Positions 1 through 5,491 of a DNA stretch of 64,000 nt are shown in pieces; position 1 is the stretch's first letter, and each line of letters starts with the position of its first letter. Position numbers and translations under genes: made by a program. Source of the stretch: an uncultured virus (IMG/VR IMGVR_UViG_3300003178_000005) (Duplodnaviria; Heunggongvirae; Uroviricota; Caudoviricetes); the IMG/VR virus record IMGVR_UViG_3300003178_000005; one strand, written 5' to 3'. The notes under the pieces were generated by a model. It had not been told where the DNA came from. It did not search any database and saw only the letters and a program-made list of their open reading frames with translations.

Positions 1-43
1 GTTGCCAAGTGGCAGCAAATCTTCGAAGTGGGCGTGCGGTCAT

Positions 44-118
44 GGCTCCATCATCTAGCGGTTAGGATTCCAGGTTTTCATCCTGGCCACAGGAGTTCGA
101 GTCTCCTTGGAGTCACCA
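44..118 (+). tRNA. tRNA-Glu(UUC)
   Basis: Acceptor GGCTCCA/TGGAGTC, anticodon arm CCAGG-TT-TTC-AT-CCTGG, T loop TTCGAGT, encoded CCA. Confidence 0.95.
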
Positions 119-122
119 TTTT

Positions 123-153
123 GTGAGTGTAGCGCAGTCTGGTAGAGCACTTG
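123..153 (+). pseudogene. 5' half of a disrupted tRNA (Pro-like)
   Basis: GTGAGTG-TA-GCGC-AGTCTGGTA-GAGC-A-CTTG, then an abrupt switch to AT-rich sequence; pairs with the half at 789-829. Confidence 0.8.
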
Positions 154-188
154 ATAATGTAACTATGTTTGGTTAAACATTATTTGAG

Positions 189-194
189 TATAAT
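189..194 (+). promoter_or_regulatory. -10 box for the HNH gene (probably leaderless mRNA)
   Basis: TATAAT ending 6 nt before ATG 201, no SD. Confidence 0.55.
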
Positions 195-200
195 GCTACC

Positions 201-716
201 ATGAGAAAAGAAAGTCAAGGTGAATATATTTTTGTTGTTGATTCGTTTTGTGAAATGGCAGACAGCAGAGGCAGAGTACTCGAACATAGATATGTAGTGG
301 CTAAACATATTGGAAGACCGTTGCGTAACGATGAACATGTGCATCATAAAAACGAGAACAAAAAAGACAATCGTATAGAAAATCTTGAAATAGTGTCTCA
401 AGCAGAACATAGGCGACTACATGCAAATACATACGTAAAATGTGCATTTATTTGTCCAATATGCGGAACTTTTTTTGAAAAAACTAAAAGGGAGCTAAAA
501 TATGGGAAAATACAAAAACCATGCTGCTCAAGAAAATGTGCTGCAAGGAAACAATTATTAGATGGAAGGTTTCCTATAGGAAATAGTGGACGCAAAACAG
601 AAATTGCTCATGGAACATATGCAGAATACAAAAAAGGATGCAGATGCGATAAATGTAAAAAAGCAAATTCAGAATACATGAAAAAATATAGAAAAGAACG
701 GGGTGTGGGAAAGTAA
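201..716 (+). CDS. HNH homing endonuclease with C-terminal Cys-rich zinc-binding motifs
   Basis: EHRYVVAKHIGRPL..EHVHHKNENKKDNRIENL..H HNH_3-type motif; CPIC..CCSRKC and HGT..GCRCDKC motifs; stop lies inside tRNA-Pro. Confidence 0.9.
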   Translation: MRKESQGEYIFVVDSFCEMADSRGRVLEHRYVVAKHIGRPLRNDEHVHHKNENKKDNRIENLEIVSQAEHRRLHANTYVKCAFICPICGTFFEKTKRELKYGKIQKPCCSRKCAARKQLLDGRFPIGNSGRKTEIAHGTYAEYKKGCRCDKCKKANSEYMKKYRKERGVGK

Positions 717-777
717 GGTTTAATCCGCTTGCTTTGGGAGCAAGAGAGCGTCAGTTCGAATCTGACTACCCCGACCA
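699..777 (+). tRNA. tRNA-Pro(UGG)
   Basis: Acceptor CGGGGTG/TACCCCG, anticodon arm CTTGC-TT-TGG-GA-GCAAG, T arm GTCAG-TTCGAAT-CTGAC, CCA. Confidence 0.92.
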
Positions 778-788
778 TGAATATTTTT

Positions 789-829
789 GAGCAAGAAAGT
801 CGCAGGTTCGAATCCTGCCTCTCGCACCA
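789..829 (+). pseudogene. 3' half of the disrupted tRNA
   Basis: GAGCAAG-AAAGTC-GCAGG-TTCGAAT-CCTGC-CTCTCGC-A-CCA; acceptor strand pairs 6/7 with 123-129. Confidence 0.8.
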
Positions 830-899
830 TTAGATTGGTTTTGATAAAGTCATGGCTTTATGAGAACCAGTCTAATTTTTGATAGTTTTGAATTGACTT

Positions 900-1140
900 G
901 GGGCCCAGAGGACGCTCTGGGATGGTACCTAAAAACCTATCCAAAACTATTAACGCAATATGCCTTCGGAGGGTTAAGCCCAAAGACGCATATCTGGCGT
1001 GACTAAGAGAGGGTGAAGCCGTTCGGGAGATAAGCGCCCTGAATCCGCCACGCTCGTGGAGGCCCCTCTCGATTGTCGAACTCATTCTGCCAACTACGGT
1101 TTACTAAAGTGAGGAGTGGGAGAAGACGCAATCTTCGACT
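900..1140 (+). ncRNA. Candidate structured ncRNA, family unassigned
   Basis: GC-rich, no credible ORF; stems 904-910/915-921, 958-963/988-993, 1007-1013/1064-1070, 1048-1052/1055-1059. Confidence 0.5.
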
Positions 1141-1180
1141 TACCGCTTTCAATATCAAATACCTAGATGGCGGAAATTGT

Positions 1181-1266
1181 GCCCCTGTGTTGGAATGGTA
1201 GACATTGGGGACTTAAAATCCCCTGGCCTTTGTGCCGTGCGGGTTCAAATCCCGCTGGGGGTACCA
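1181..1266 (+). tRNA. tRNA-Leu(UAA)
   Basis: GGGGA-CT-TAA-AA-TCCCC, long variable arm, GCGGG-TTCAAAT-CCCGC, CCA. Confidence 0.92.
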
Positions 1267-1269
1267 TAT

Positions 1270-1353
1270 GCGGATGTGGTGGAATGGTAGACACGCCAGC
1301 CTTAGGAGCTGGTGCCGAAAGGTGTGGAGGTTCGAGTCCTCTCATCCGTACCA
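1270..1353 (+). tRNA. tRNA-Leu(UAG)
   Basis: CCAGC-CT-TAG-GA-GCTGG, variable arm, TTCGAGT T loop, CCA. Confidence 0.95.
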
Positions 1354-1386
1354 ATCAAAAGGAGAGAAATTGTCTCTCTGAAATAT

Positions 1387-1455
1387 GAGGTGTGCCATAA
1401 TTGGAAAGATGACTGCAGCATCCTGAAGCAGGTTCAAACCCTGCCCACCTCGCCT
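1387..1455 (+). pseudogene. Degenerate tRNA (possibly Cys GCA derived)
   Basis: GAGGTG/CACCTC acceptor-like stem and intact T arm GCAGG-TTCAAAC-CCTGC; damaged D and anticodon arms; ends CCT. Confidence 0.55.
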
Positions 1456-1462
1456 TACACAT

Positions 1463-1548
1463 AGAGGGTTGGCCGAGCGGTCGAAGGCACTGGTCTTGAA
1501 AACCAGCGTGCGTAAGCACCAAGGGTTCGAATCCCTTACCCTCTGCCA
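1463..1548 (+). tRNA. tRNA-Ser(UGA)
   Basis: AGAGGGT/ACCCTCT, CTGGT-CT-TGA-AA-ACCAG, variable arm, G73, CCA. Confidence 0.95.
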
Positions 1549-1571
1549 TTTTTTTTAGCATATATTTTTAT

Positions 1572-1648
1572 GCTCGAATAGCTCAGTTGGCTAGAGCAGC
1601 TGATTTGTAATCAGCAGGTCGTCGGTTCGAGTCCGACTTTGAGCTCCA
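1572..1648 (+). tRNA. tRNA-Thr(UGU)
   Basis: GCTGA-TT-TGT-AA-TCAGC, GTCGG-TTCGAGT-CCGAC, CCA. Confidence 0.95.
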
Positions 1649-1679
1649 CAAAAATCAACAGGACGAAAAAATATATGCT

Positions 1680-1710
1680 AAAAAAACCGCACGGGGTGTG
1701 CGGATTCTTT
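1680..1710. terminator. Probable bidirectional intrinsic terminator
   Basis: A-tract, CCGCAC/GTGCGG hairpin, T-rich tail between convergent units. Confidence 0.6.
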
Positions 1711-2138
1711 CACCCCAGCTTCTTCAGCCTTCTCTCACCCTCTTTGAACTTGAGTTCTGCAATAGCAGATGCTGCTCTCAGGCTTGAAATGCTAGTGACA
1801 AAGGCTGGGATATATGCCTCTATCACTTTTCCATATGTCTCGTATACGATTTGTGCAACCTTTGGGTCGGACTCAAAGTTAATGCTAATATTGAATCCAT
1901 CCTTTTTGTTGGCCCTCACGAGAACATCGACCGACGTCCCCATCTGGTTGAATGATGCTGACTCGCTGATTGTTCCGCCAAGCGCAACTTTCAACTGTTT
2001 CCAAACAGATGGTTTTTTGGGAGTCTCCGCACCAAATTCTTTAGAGATTGCTCTCACTGCTTCCGCAATTCCATCTTGGAATTTTGCATAACTTTTCATT
2101 TCCTCTGTGCTGACATGTGCTGTAATTTCGATTCTCAT
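1710..2138 (-). CDS. Hypothetical protein
   Basis: 142 aa ORF, AGGAG SD, ends at the terminator. Confidence 0.7.
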   Translation of the reverse strand: MRIEITAHVSTEEMKSYAKFQDGIAEAVRAISKEFGAETPKKPSVWKQLKVALGGTISESASFNQMGTSVDVLVRANKKDGFNISINFESDPKVAQIVYETYGKVIEAYIPAFVTSISSLRAASAIAELKFKEGERRLKKLG

Positions 2139-2372
2139 CGTGTACTCCTGTTTTGATTTTTGCTAAGAATATGCAATACACATCTTCTCGCACAAATAGT
2201 TACCAGCTTTTTTTTCAAAAGTTCACTTTACACAAGGGCGAAAATATAGTACAATTCCTACTCTTTTAAAAATGAACTTTTTGCATGCCCACATGGTATA
2301 TAATACTGAGGACAGATGCCACTCAAAATATGAGCTTCAAACACCAAGGAGCTAAGCCAAGAAGTCAGCCAC

Positions 2373-2452
2373 TCCTATGGTGCAAACGCAGGGGAACAGT
2401 ATTTTGTGTTTGCTAAGTCGGTTGCTGAAATCCAAATCAACCAGCCATAGGA
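2373..2452 (+). ncRNA. Candidate three-way-junction RNA in the tRNA leader
   Basis: TCCTATGG/CCATAGGA closing stem enclosing GCAAACGCA/TGTGTTTGC and GGTTG/CAACC hairpins. Confidence 0.4.
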
Positions 2453-2492
2453 TACGGGCGGGTAGCTCAGTTGGTTAGAGCCCTCGGCTCAT

Positions 2493-3220
2493 ACATCTTT
2501 ACATTCGGATGTTTTTATGGCATAATGCATTAAAACATAAGGATTAAAGAATGAAGCATAGTTACAGAAGATTGAATGGTTACGTCCTAACCTATGAGCC
2601 GTCTAGCAAGTATTGCATGACATCAGAAAATTGGGATGGATGGGTATATGAACATATACTCGTCATGGAAAGAAGGCTTGGTGAAATACCTGACGGATTT
2701 GAAGTGCATCATCTTGATGGTGACACTGAAAACAATAGGGACGACAACCTAATACTTCTTTCAAAGGAAGACCATACAAGACTTCATAACTGGCTTCAGT
2801 CGTGTGACATCAACTTGAAAGAGTTGAATGCAAATCGGATGAATTCAGGGAAACCTAAACTATTCAGGTGTAAAGAGTGCGATAAGCCATTGTCTGGAAG
2901 CCAGACAACATTTTGTTGTACTGCATGCCAAAATAGGTTTAGCTCAAAGAAACCTCCTGTAGACGAGCTTATAGGTAAAACTATAAGCGAAATCTCAAGC
3001 AAGTTTTCAGTAACTCCGAAGACTGCAAGAAAATGGTTTCATTCATACGGAATAGCATGGCAATCCTGAGCGAAGCCAATGACGAACTTCATTGGAACGT
3101 GCAGAGACTACACGGTGCAAGAAGCGTCTTGCGTAATACGTGATTAGCGTCCGACACCTAAGTGCTACATGCATATGGTGATGATATAGTCCACGGAGTA
3201 GTGAAAGCTACACAAACGTG
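2493..3220 (+). mobile_element. Group I self-splicing intron (728 nt) encoding an HNH endonuclease
   Basis: 5' exon ends in U, intron ends in G; P3 TCGGATG 2835-2841/CGTCCGA 3148-3154; P4 TTCAGG/CCTGAG; P7 GAGACTA 3104-3110/TAGTCC 3187-3192; P9 GTAGT-GAAA-GCTAC. Confidence 0.92.
2551..3069 (+). CDS. Intron-encoded HNH homing endonuclease with zinc finger and HTH-like tail
   Basis: YEHILVMERRLG..EVHHLDGDTENNRDDNL..H; CKEC..FCCTAC; AAGGA SD; TGGCATAAT -10-like box upstream. Confidence 0.9.
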   Translation: MKHSYRRLNGYVLTYEPSSKYCMTSENWDGWVYEHILVMERRLGEIPDGFEVHHLDGDTENNRDDNLILLSKEDHTRLHNWLQSCDINLKELNANRMNSGKPKLFRCKECDKPLSGSQTTFCCTACQNRFSSKKPPVDELIGKTISEISSKFSVTPKTARKWFHSYGIAWQS

Positions 3221-3271
3221 AACCGAGTTGTCGCAGGTTCGAGCCCTGCTCCGCCCACCATTTAATCTTCA

Positions 3272-3378
3272 GATTTCCGCAGGATGCGGCTAATCGTCAA
3301 CGCCAAAAACAAAAAGTGTTAAAACTTCCTTCCAAAGAAACAAACATTTTTCGACATTGGCCGCATCCTGGGGAAATC
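3272..3378 (+). ncRNA. Long rod-like hairpin RNA candidate
   Basis: 15-bp helix 3280-3294/3356-3370, flanked by 3272-3278/3372-3378, with an inner AAAAAGTGTT/AACATTTTT stem. Confidence 0.5.
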
Positions 3379-3379
3379 C

Positions 3380-3582
3380 CTGGAGGAAAGACCAGCAGTT
3401 GAGTTCTACGAGGATTGACGAATACGAACCTTCTTGTCCCTTATTTAAGGAACGAGAACCAGTACTATTGCGCTTTGAGAGTAGATACAGACAGGAGCGT
3501 CAGCCCCCTCCTAAAGCCAAATATATGGTAGGTTCCGTTACCTATCCGGCAGAAATAAACGGATAAAGAAGCAGCTCAGGCA
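3380..3582 (+). ncRNA. Candidate multibranch ncRNA with pseudoknot
   Basis: GAGG..TTGACG/CGTCAG..CCTC stem; TTCTTGT/ACGAGAA hairpin; GGTAGG/CCTATC hairpin whose loop TCCGTT can pair with downstream AACGGA. Confidence 0.45.
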
Positions 3583-3705
3583 ATCTATATGATGCTTGAC
3601 AAAAGTTGCTTCTTGATTTTTTTAGCCTACATTATGGTATATATATTTGGAGAGAGTGTGGTTTTAAAACGAGCCCTAGGGCAAAAATCACCTTTAGGAG
3701 ACCAT

Positions 3706-3819
3706 ATGGTAAAGTTTGTAAAGAAAATAGCAACCGATGAAAGGACTATTGCAATAGCAGGGCTAATAGCACTGGCGGTTGCTGAGGCGCTTCTAAGCAA
3801 AAAGCCAGCGGATAGCTAG
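3706..3819 (+). CDS. 37 aa single-TM peptide (type I toxin-like)
   Basis: AGGAG SD; hydrophobic IAIAGLIALAVAEALL followed by SKK; own promoter; 5'/3' UTR complementarity. Confidence 0.6.
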   Translation: MVKFVKKIATDERTIAIAGLIALAVAEALLSKKPADS

Positions 3820-3846
3820 CGTTGGCTGCCACGCTCTCTCTATTTT

Positions 3847-5028
3847 TTAGCATCTAATACTATCATGAATATTCTTTACCGCTTTTCCTGAAAGGTGCAT
3901 TCCAAGCGCAATAGCTGCTGCATCTGATGCAGCTGGCCCAAAAAGCTTTCTTGTAATTCCATACCCAAGACCAGCACCAGCTAAATTGAGCGCAACATCT
4001 CCGACTATACTATCATCTAGTGTTTTTTGCATCTCGTGAGTTTTCGCCCTTATAGCATCTCGTGCTGTCATCTTAACGGTTGATTCTTTTTTTAGCTCTC
4101 TATTTTTTAGGTATTGAGACAACTGGTCTATAGCTAACCCAACGCCTAAGCCTGCAAGACCAAATTTTCCGGCAGCTTTTAAAGTATTTCTTGCTAACCC
4201 TTTAGTTAGTGCTTTTGATGTGTTTTTTGCCCGCTGAGCTTCTGCCCCAACAAGGAAGTCTGGTTTTGCCTTGTTTCTCCAGAATCTGTCAGGCTTTTTC
4301 TTTAGTCTTTCGTATTCTGCTCTTTCATTTTTTATATATTCTTTATTTTTTGTGTTGTATCCAACAATCCTATTCGTTATCGGCTCTATTGCCCCTGAGG
4401 CAGCAAACGATGCTCCAGTCCCAAGTATTTGCTTCTTTCTTGATGAGTTTTCATCTCCCGCTCCGGTCGCATTATCTGCAATATCATTAGCTGCAGTACC
4501 GAGCCCTCCTAGTGCTGCCCCACGCTTTGCAGATATTCCCCTAAACTTTCCCTTTGTAAAAAGTGACAACCCTGCGCCAAGAGCTGCACCACCAAGAGAA
4601 TCTTTTATCATCTCAGATGTTTTTCTTTTTTTTGGCTTCTTGTCTTCAACTGCACTTTCTGCAATTTCATATGCATCATCTGGTATGACGGCAGCAGACT
4701 GCTTGTAGATATCTGTCGCAGATTTGATATATTTCTTTTCTTTTCTATTATCAGCAAGCCACCTTCTTGCTCTTGTGGCATCATCAACTTTTTTGTCGTT
4801 ATATACTTTTCCGGCTGCAGCACCAACCGCTGTTCCTGCTGCGAGTATTGCCGCCTCTTTTGGTCTTGATTTTGTTTTGATTATTCTAGACAGCAAACCA
4901 GAAGAGAGTGCACCCTTGAATGCTCCCTCTGCTATAGGCTCTTTGCTGTCCCTGCCATATTCATAAGAAGCATCACGCTTTGCTTTTTCTTCAGCAAGCT
5001 CTCTTGCTACCTTATCTTCTTTTCGCAT
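3847..5028 (-). CDS. Gly/Ala/Lys-rich putative virion internal protein
   Basis: Repeated GxxxG-rich hydrophobic segments; likely ATG at 5028. Confidence 0.55.
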   Translation of the reverse strand: MRKEDKVARELAEEKAKRDASYEYGRDSKEPIAEGAFKGALSSGLLSRIIKTKSRPKEAAILAAGTAVGAAAGKVYNDKKVDDATRARRWLADNRKEKKYIKSATDIYKQSAAVIPDDAYEIAESAVEDKKPKKRKTSEMIKDSLGGAALGAGLSLFTKGKFRGISAKRGAALGGLGTAANDIADNATGAGDENSSRKKQILGTGASFAASGAIEPITNRIVGYNTKNKEYIKNERAEYERLKKKPDRFWRNKAKPDFLVGAEAQRAKNTSKALTKGLARNTLKAAGKFGLAGLGVGLAIDQLSQYLKNRELKKESTVKMTARDAIRAKTHEMQKTLDDSIVGDVALNLAGAGLGYGITRKLFGPAASDAAAIALGMHLSGKAVKNIHDSIRC

Positions 5029-5491
5029 CAGAAAGACCTCTTCCGCCGCTGTTGTTTTTGGCCATACTGTTTCCAGCGTTAACATAGCCAAAGAACTCGC
5101 TTGTTCCAGACTGCTTGTGTGTTTTTTCTCCGGTATCTGCAATCAGCTTTGCAGTCGCAAGGTCTATGTTCCCACCGTAGCTATGAACTGTAGAAAGCAT
5201 GCTCGCACCAAGCTCCTTATTTGTGGCTATCCCCGGAGACAGTGTATAAAATGCGTTCATCCACTCTTTCATATCTTGATGTGGTACTTTTTTTAGCTCA
5301 GGATGTTTCTTTTTTGCATAATCTATAACACTATTAAGTTTTCTTTTTTGCACACCTGAGTGTATAGTGTCAATTAGAGAATCTACTCCTTTTAGCGCTA
5401 CAGCAGCACCTATTACTGGAACTATTTGTTTTGCCATATCCATTCCAGCGCTAGAAGCCGAAGAAATTTTAGATAGCCCTTGTCTAGCCAT
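5012..5491 (-). CDS. Hypothetical (putative virion) protein
   Basis: 159 aa, AAGGA SD, TGGTATAAT promoter upstream. Confidence 0.65.
   Translation of the reverse strand: MARQGLSKISSASSAGMDMAKQIVPVIGAAVALKGVDSLIDTIHSGVQKRKLNSVIDYAKKKHPELKKVPHQDMKEWMNAFYTLSPGIATNKELGASMLSTVHSYGGNIDLATAKLIADTGEKTHKQSGTSEFFGYVNAGNSMAKNNSGGRGLSDAKRR

Follow-up and report, generated by a model that had tools for sequence, protein, structure and literature searches.

A complete tRNA-Pro gene overlapping an HNH endonuclease gene inside a broken tRNA-Pro gene: a putative non-splicing homing cassette in an uncultured phage

The broken tRNA-Pro gene and its insert

The locus described here lies near the start of a stretch of 64,000 nucleotides (nt) from an uncultured virus of the Caudoviricetes (IMG/VR record IMGVR_UViG_3300003178_000005), which is called the window below. 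At this locus, the two ends of an old transfer RNA (tRNA) gene for proline are separated by a 635-nt insert that carries an HNH homing-endonuclease gene and a complete second tRNA-Pro(UGG) gene, the cassette copy. All parts lie on the + strand. The old 5' part (123..153) holds canonical tRNA positions 1-30 in the order acceptor 5' strand, U8/A9, D arm, A26, and CTTG (positions 27-30), and the old 3' part (789..829) holds positions 37-76, namely G37 A38, GCAAG, a 6-nt variable loop, the T arm, the acceptor 3' strand, A73, and an encoded CCA. The insert (154..788) replaces old positions 31-36. It consists of a 47-nt leader between the 5' junction and the start of the open reading frame (ORF) (154-200), the HNH_3 homing-endonuclease gene of 171 amino acids (201..716), the complete tRNA-Pro(UGG) (699..777), and an 11-nt tail that separates this tRNA from the old 3' half (778..788). 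The ORF and tRNA coordinates bear out an overlap of 18 nt, in which the start of the cassette tRNA doubles as the last 5 codons and the stop of the HNH ORF. The HNH gene is the sole ORF in the insert, and no integrase gene was found there.

The identity of the halves was assessed by blastn of each against 50,697 phage records, and annotations were tallied over the best 40 rows. For the 3' half, 32 of these 40 rows were tRNA-Pro, none was another tRNA, and 8 were unannotated; for the 5' half, 29/40 were tRNA-Pro, with 2 Ile, 3 Phe, and 6 other or unannotated rows. Moreover, the single tRNA-Pro of Stenotrophomonas phage Pokken aligned to both halves (28/31 identical positions in the 5' half and 33/40 in the 3' half), and the gap between the two matches was exactly 6 nt, corresponding to C31 to G36 of the Pokken arm CTTGC-TTTGGGA-GCAAG. 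As judged by these comparisons, 123-153 and 789-829 are confirmed as the two ends of one tRNA-Pro gene. This agrees with a preliminary description of the locus, made by a model from the letters without database searches, which had recognized matching tRNA halves; neither an origin from two different tRNAs nor an identity other than Pro was seen.

When read by hand against the Pokken gene, the old gene showed a compensated pair change at 4-69, indicating that it once evolved as a working tRNA. The decay of the halves suspected in the preliminary description was also evident, as T6xT67 and G12xA23 are unpaired, the variable loop has one extra base, and positions 31-36 are absent. At a relaxed threshold, ARAGORN accepted 264 of the 360 junction combinations made by script from the two halves as a tRNA with the frame 123..829, and its intron mode gave no call for the native locus 123..829. 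The acceptor strands of the two halves pair at 6/7 positions, which alone is weak proof of common origin because, of six other tRNA 3' strands in the cluster, that of tRNA-Leu(UAG) matches this 5' strand equally well (6/7). Identity between the old gene and the cassette tRNA-Pro is 19/30 for the 5' half and 33/38 for the 3' half. The CTTG..GAGCAAG anticodon arm, which had been taken as a link between the broken and complete copies, is indeed common to both, but it is also the arm of the Pokken tRNA-Pro and thus gives no special tie between them.

The product of the HNH ORF matched Pfam PF13392 (HNH_3) with 39.6 bits against a cut-off of 24.8 (E 4.1e-10), as well as several PHROG HNH families. 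Its motif HHKNENKKDN...N..L...H...H is intact, and H48, H49, N57, N61, H70, and H74 are invariant in a 10-sequence family alignment, so the earlier assignment as an HNH endonuclease holds. Its C-terminal 50 amino acids are unlike the C-termini of the intron-borne relatives discussed below. A PDB sequence search with the protein returned one chance zinc-finger match only and no relative of solved structure. The promoter that had been placed in the insert was not upheld. A lone -10-like hexamer, TATAAT (189..194), stands 7 nt ahead of the ORF, no -35 partner was found for it, and the sigma-70 scan listed no + strand site upstream of the ORF. In addition, no Shine-Dalgarno 4-mer is present in -20..-1 of the ORF, and the leader hairpin at 153-184 is no better than shuffled sequences (z -0.71).

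The cassette tRNA-Pro(UGG) was called by ARAGORN and scored 59.1 bits in Rfam against a gathering score of 29, in line with its first description as complete and divergent. The cloverleaf has C1-G72, A73, G37, and an encoded CCA end, and its closest phage matches are tRNA-Pro genes. We take C1-G72 and A73 to be bacterial proline identity elements. CCA is the commonest proline codon of the window, with 234 occurrences among the 440 proline codons counted in naive ORFs of at least 200 amino acids.

No ribozyme was detected in the insert. Rfam placed no intron family in 154-788 when run over 1-4000 (E<=1) or over 100-1200 (E<=10), which supports the earlier statement that no group I core is visible. 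The same search served as its own positive control, since it scored a neighbouring tRNA(CAU) group I intron at 70.5 bits. Neither a catalytic core (P3-P9) nor exons that would rebuild an intact gene were found, and with the exon ends needed to rebuild the anticodon loop also gone, splicing is very unlikely. By the same Rfam results, the HNH gene lies outside any intron or intein, as a free-standing homing-endonuclease gene does. A hidden intron was also considered and rejected, because a 12-nt core motif from the related introns (3 mismatches allowed) occurred at chance level in the insert and Rfam was blank as well; this motif had 120 matches window-wide against about 71 expected, and the insert contained one + strand match, which falls in the tRNA D loop.

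The arrangement was also present in independent assemblies. Logan contigs came from runs X1 and X2, which represent one sample, probably the source sample, and from run X3 of a second study; stretches without X3 or X4 cover were not counted as evidence. X1/X2 contigs cover 44-381, 365-1607, 44-659, and 665-1348 with 0-2 differences, and X3 contigs cover 94-345 with 5 differences and 334-834 with 3 differences. Both junctions are thus bridged by contigs from two studies. The two listed X3 differences within the ORF (281 and 558) are both synonymous by hand translation. X3 diverges from base 834, right after the old CCA, where 834-944 is replaced by 335 letters; 944-1103 follows with 13 differences, and 1711-2394 has no cover. 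A joint from 148 to 799 in X2 was considered as an empty-site allele and set aside, since it occurs in one contig with 20 letters on the shorter side and 80% likeness, and most likely comes from another organism's intact tRNA.

Related loci in other phages

The HNH family was collected as 97 loci (17 metagenome and 80 IMG/VR), designated here by L numbers; there is some redundancy between the IMG/VR and JGI loci, and the ORF bounds are naive frame extensions. The HHKNENKKDN motif is invariant across the family. A tRNA was called nearby in 15/97 loci by ARAGORN without the intron option. In 6 clear and 2 ambiguous cases, a tRNA on the strand of the HNH gene begins between -39 and +8 nt relative to the HNH stop. 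Among distant homologs found by tblastn, the HNH gene of Acinetobacter phage 14/CRR8 abuts a tRNA-Phe, and that of coliphage Bas91 overlaps a tRNA-Arg by 10 nt.

The half-tRNA/HNH/full-tRNA/half-tRNA layout of the window recurs in full in the IMG/VR locus L043. There, a 5' tRNA part extending through the D arm is followed by the HNH gene, a complete tRNA-Arg(UCU), 7 nt, and a T arm with acceptor 3' strand, and the outer acceptor strands pair 7/7. Four more loci (L045, L010, and the coliphages O18-011 and Bas91) contain a 5' remnant, an HNH gene, and a complete tRNA-Arg(UCU). A D-arm consensus motif lies at most 150 nt upstream of the HNH gene in 4 of the 6 loci in which nuclease and tRNA are welded; for comparison, both strands of the window (128 kilobases) hold 9 such motifs, 3 of which are true tRNA 5' ends. 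The scan also matched 17 of the 89 other loci, mostly in 5' exons. No ribozyme was detected in 9 cassette-type loci.

The coliphages provide what was not found for the window phage, namely an HNH-less allele. Phage phiEco32, with flanks homologous to those of O18-011 and Bas91, lacks the HNH gene at this site and carries an intact tRNA-Arg(UCU). The cassette tRNA of Bas91 differs from the phiEco32 tRNA along its entire length, indicating that the cassette brings a whole tRNA and not a patch. A model in which only the 5' part of a tRNA is brought and the resident 3' part is reused is ruled out for Bas91 by this full-length divergence. Positions 777-787 of the window are identical over 11 nt to 2033-2043 of L045, just after the L045 cassette tRNA. 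This may be a shared cassette end or chance; by a rough estimate, chance is possible after multiple comparisons. The L045 stretch starts a small ORF, and the window and L045 HNH proteins are only about 41% identical.

The closest HNH relatives of the window protein (43-44% identity) lie inside interrupted tRNA-Arg(UCU) genes. ARAGORN in intron mode called tRNA-Arg(UCU) with HNH-enclosing inserts of 599-654 nt in 10 loci, several of them redundant; such inserts with an HNH gene are present in L029, L030, L032, L034, L039, and L040. Of the 10 loci scanned, two matched Rfam Intron_gpI, both below its gathering score of 50 (L030, 40.4 bits; L032, 36.8 bits). All 7 of the 7 printed inserts end in a shared group-I-like core sequence followed by ...G|CTAAGC, which places the insertion at U34|C35. 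The leaders of the intron loci measure 15-57 nt and the distance from stop to 3' exon 29-104 nt, as compared with 47 and 72 nt in the window. Altogether, 16 ARAGORN intron calls enclose an HNH gene, of which 6 are not tRNA-Arg(UCU), and 4 calls elsewhere served as controls. The calls at L031, L035, L055, L058, and L059 were discarded as probable artefacts that join neighbouring tRNAs, and L014 has a group-I-like 3' end as in the tRNA-Arg introns, only its tRNA identity being doubtful. In the HNH tree, the cassette-type loci L016, L010, and L045 fall within groups of intron-type members, and support for this is modest (83/87 and 85/80). For the most part, the lineage of the window HNH is carried by probable group I introns of tRNA anticodon loops. 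The preliminary description had called the cassette intron-less, which stands in that no ribozyme was detected, but the nuclease itself belongs to a lineage found mostly in probable introns, and we prefer to regard the cassette as a tRNA intron's sister form or as derived from such an intron.

Some further features were observed at the family loci. Downstream of the cassette tRNA-Arg of Bas91 (L007), positions 1873-1987 form an unannotated 115-nt tRNA-like element, whose ends pair 6/7 and which finishes with a T arm and ACCA, as if it were a tRNA with an insertion of about 40 nt. At the same Kuravirus tRNA-Arg locus, coliphage Paul (L109) has a different, SPO1-like HNH gene downstream of the tRNA (906-1525), so that several endonuclease lineages seem to share this locus as a hot spot. 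L059 contains a ROOL RNA (241-855, 321 bits) and a skipping-rope RNA (1304-1443, 59 bits) in a tRNA cluster with a family HNH gene, and the skipping-rope RNA overlaps the HNH start. A transfer-messenger RNA (tmRNA; L014, 2930-3301, 104 bits) and a permuted tmRNA (L031, 3122-3312, 60.7 bits) each lie just downstream of an HNH-interrupted tRNA gene.

Origin of the insert

We consider it fairly probable that the insert is a non-splicing homing cassette, in which the spare tRNA does the job done by the ribozyme in the intron-borne relatives. A free-standing HNH gene with tRNA-Pro(UGG) welded to its 3' end would have entered as one unit, with the anticodon stem-loop of a resident tRNA-Pro gene as its landing site. 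The targets of the predicted nuclease would be intact tRNA genes for the same isoacceptor, cut close to the anticodon stem-loop, and the break would be repaired by copying the nuclease gene together with the adjacent tRNA from the donor. Presumably because the old and new tRNAs share too little sequence, both junctions would have fallen outside homology and both old ends would have been left. Where only a 5' remnant is present (L045, L010, and the coliphages), the 3' side may have found homology or been resected. Decoding of CCA would be maintained by the cassette tRNA while the old halves decay, and the overlap of ORF and tRNA would prevent the separation of the nuclease from its rescue tRNA. 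The preliminary description had likewise proposed a selfish element that neutralizes its own insertion by carrying a cleavage-resistant replacement tRNA. What it observed is confirmed, and what it concluded is partly supported.

Several points weigh against this explanation. No empty-site relative of the window phage was found in IMG/VR, JGI metagenomes, cultured phages, or the run contigs, so the insertion is deduced from the anatomy of the locus and from its analogues. An exact 28-nt pattern from the old 5' half had 0 matches in IMG/VR, a 20-nt pattern from the D arm of the cassette tRNA also had 0 matches, and the neighbouring ORFs 1710-2138 and 3847-5142 had no relatives in IMG/VR; searches with the HNH protein likewise led to no close relative of the phage. 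The RecA-like protein reached at most 44% identity in cultured phages, and blastn of 1-1700 against phages gave generic tRNA matches only. The analogues themselves are not close, as the window HNH is only 36-44% identical to them, and in the HNH tree, where 3 of 26 inner branches are well supported, the window HNH and L043 are unplaced. Blastn assigned no identity to the old tRNA of L043, for which the best matches were tRNA-Gly at E 0.1; the 5' remnant end in L043, L045, and O18-011 is placeable only to positions 26-31. Furthermore, the old and new tRNAs have just one stretch in common, the anticodon arm in which the break lies, and this arm is intact in the new copy, so any cleavage resistance would have to come from the flanks. 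Finally, the 635-nt insert and its 47-nt leader fall within the ranges of the related introns and fit an origin from an intron equally well.

Such an origin is the strongest alternative, although we regard it as rather unlikely. It holds that the old tRNA-Pro once had an HNH group I intron in its anticodon loop, that the ribozyme was lost, and that a complete tRNA-Pro took its slot, which leads to the same final state by a different route. The position of the closest HNH relatives in interrupted tRNA-Arg(UCU) genes with group-I-like 3' ends, the two sub-threshold Intron_gpI matches, and the nesting of L016, L010, and L045 among intron-type members all point in this direction, as do the lengths of the window insert, its leader, and its stop-to-3'-exon distance of 72 nt, which are within or near the intron ranges, and the true HNH group I intron that lies only 1.7 kilobases away. 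Against it, a ribozyme remnant is found in neither the window's cassette nor the 9 cassette-type loci. The related introns are inserted at 34|35, whereas the old 5' part stops at position 30, and a 3' exon beginning at position 35 would start with GG where the sequence has TT. A tRNA gene would also have to land exactly in the place of the ribozyme several times independently, and no tRNA-Pro group I intron occurred among the loci examined.

It is less probable still that the locus is an unrelated scar, left when illegitimate recombination in the tRNA cluster put an HNH gene and a tRNA fragment into a tRNA gene, with a nuclease that was uninvolved and does not target tRNA. Large-phage tRNA clusters are mosaic, as the replaced 834-944 and the uncovered 1711-2394 of X3 illustrate, and only 15 of the 97 family loci have a tRNA nearby when the intron option is off. 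However, the nested or half-nested layout occurs in at least five unrelated loci, and the old and new isoacceptors are equal in both cases in which their identities are known, Pro/Pro in the window and Arg(UCU)/Arg(UCU) in the coliphages. The D-arm-like remnants upstream of 4/6 welded HNH genes contrast with a rare background, and the intron-borne relatives occupy the same part of tRNA genes.

That the split gene still works, its halves being joined in RNA by an unrecognized ribozyme or by processing and ligation, or acting as a two-piece tRNA, is very improbable. The halves could pair through the acceptor (6/7) and four anticodon-stem pairs, and the layout is kept in two populations, but the product would have no anticodon, since positions 31-36 are absent. 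Its acceptor and D stems have mismatches, its variable loop has the extra base, no Rfam intron family at E<=10 and no ARAGORN intron-mode call accompanies it, and it would be dispensable given the complete tRNA-Pro(UGG). An assembly chimera or a chance resemblance can practically be dismissed even for a metagenome-type record such as the window, as X1, X2, and X3 contigs agree and bridge both junctions and both halves match tRNA-Pro genes specifically.

Beyond the single locus, the preferred reading of a non-splicing cassette leads to a broader one, which we put forward tentatively and hold with less confidence. One HNH lineage in phage tRNA genes may switch repeatedly between two devices, a group I ribozyme or a spare tRNA fused to the nuclease gene, and replacing what is broken may be a general evolved alternative to splicing. 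Such cassettes might spread variant tRNAs between unrelated phages, possibly allowing escape from host anticodon nucleases.

Relation to known elements and the surrounding region

Like the cassette, SegB is encoded by a nuclease gene that lies outside an intron and among phage tRNA genes (PMC2330249; PMC13096335). According to these two reports, SegB of T4/T6 is a GIY-YIG endonuclease that cuts inside tRNA genes and the T4 tRNA region is preferentially inherited (PMC2330249); units of SegB and tRNA-Tyr undergo amplification, and the nuclease is described as "frequently associated with tRNAs" (PMC13096335); cleavage in tRNA genes, inheritance with neighbouring tRNA genes, and copying of nuclease-plus-tRNA blocks are thus on record for it. 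In contrast to the HNH protein of the cassette, SegB is of the GIY-YIG class, and it recognizes the T-arm motif (PMC2330249; PMC13096335). Moreover, these reports place SegB between intact tRNA genes, report no nesting in a broken tRNA of the same isoacceptor with both halves left behind, and describe no fusion of its ORF to a tRNA 5' end in the manner of the cassette.

The HNH group I introns in tRNA anticodon loops share with the cassette the HNH subfamily and the tRNA region, they are similar in insert size and ORF placement, and the 3' end of the cassette ORF runs into structured RNA as theirs do. Those introns, however, self-splice and leave intact exons, whereas at the cassette no ribozyme is detectable and the exon ends are gone, and a whole second tRNA gene stands where the 3' part of the ribozyme would be. 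Another homing-endonuclease insertion that splits a gene without splicing is reportedly mobE in the nrd genes of Aeromonas phage Aeh1. Related "fractured genes" with split inteins have also been described (PMC2677866). In these systems, as at the broken tRNA-Pro gene, a free-standing endonuclease gene lies within its target gene and function is kept without an intron. Yet there the two protein pieces reportedly cooperate or are joined by split inteins, whereas here the split gene would be dead and a complete spare is supplied.

The cassette also resembles integrase islands, in which a mobile element in a tRNA gene brings tRNA sequence that keeps the function. Integrases insert into tRNA genes and restore them by a duplicated tRNA segment. 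The cassette differs in that it has no integrase, in that the break lies in the anticodon stem and not at the 3' end, and in that its tRNA is whole and divergent (19/30 and 33/38) and not a near-identical patch. To our knowledge, homing endonucleases are thought to persist in essential genes only through self-splicing introns or inteins, and otherwise between genes. Here, a nuclease gene in an RNA gene without a splicing device appears to carry a complete replacement of the gene that was destroyed. The literature covered, which left most subscription journals outside the search, contained no account of a cassette of nuclease and tRNA lying within a broken tRNA.

The empty site, the intron form, and the cassette form would make up a natural series for how selfish elements trade neutralizing devices, and part of this series is available in the cultured coliphages phiEco32, O18-011, and Bas91. 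The cassette also suggests how tRNA genes may travel from phage to phage. Phage tRNAs counter host defences that cut tRNAs (PMC13096335). For annotation, orphan tRNA halves in phage tRNA clusters should be taken as a warning, as they may mark such insertion events.

The window opens with a + strand tRNA cluster on a large phage-like contig that encodes split multisubunit RNA polymerase pieces, a RecA/UvsX-like protein, a DnaB helicase, and a ribonucleotide reductase, and its GC content is about 39%. ARAGORN and Rfam concordantly found six intact tRNA genes in the cluster. Apart from the cassette copy, these are tRNA-Glu(UUC) (44..118; Rfam 53.6 bits), which is the intact left neighbour and ends 4 nt before the broken gene, tRNA-Leu(UAA) (1181-1266), tRNA-Leu(UAG) (1270-1353), tRNA-Ser (1463-1548), and tRNA-Thr (1572-1648), all on the + strand. 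X1/X2 contigs link base 118 back to base 44 through 25 other letters, which suggests a tandem second tRNA-Glu copy or a variant arrangement at the left edge of the window. Directly 3' of the old CCA, the + strand folds into a long hairpin followed by a T run (830..875). The whole stretch from the old 3' half to tRNA-Leu (830-1180) is GC-rich and strongly structured, with a minimum free energy of -124.5 kcal/mol (z -5.59; 0 of 100 shuffles equalled it). No Rfam family matches this stretch, which may represent a stable RNA encoded in the tRNA cluster. A tRNA-like cloverleaf at 1387-1457 was called by neither ARAGORN nor Rfam; it has a 6-base-pair acceptor, a short D arm, a 4-base-pair stem with a 7-nt loop (ACUGCAG), and a perfect T arm with TTCAAAC, and may be a degenerate or unusual tRNA.

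The intron that served as the positive control interrupts a tRNA(CAU) at 2456-3260, 1.7 kilobases from the cassette. Its exons (5' exon ...CTCAT, 3' exon AACCGAG) fold as a clean cloverleaf around a 728-nt group I intron insert, with the Rfam match of 70.5 bits at 2778-3213. The intron carries a second HNH ORF (2551-3069), and the two HNH proteins of the window share 35% identity over 51 residues only. A promoter-like TTTACA-17-CATAAT is present in this intron at 2498-2526. An X3 contig skips from 2495 to 2830 and from 2858 to 3057, which indicates an ORF-less allele of the tRNA(CAU) intron.

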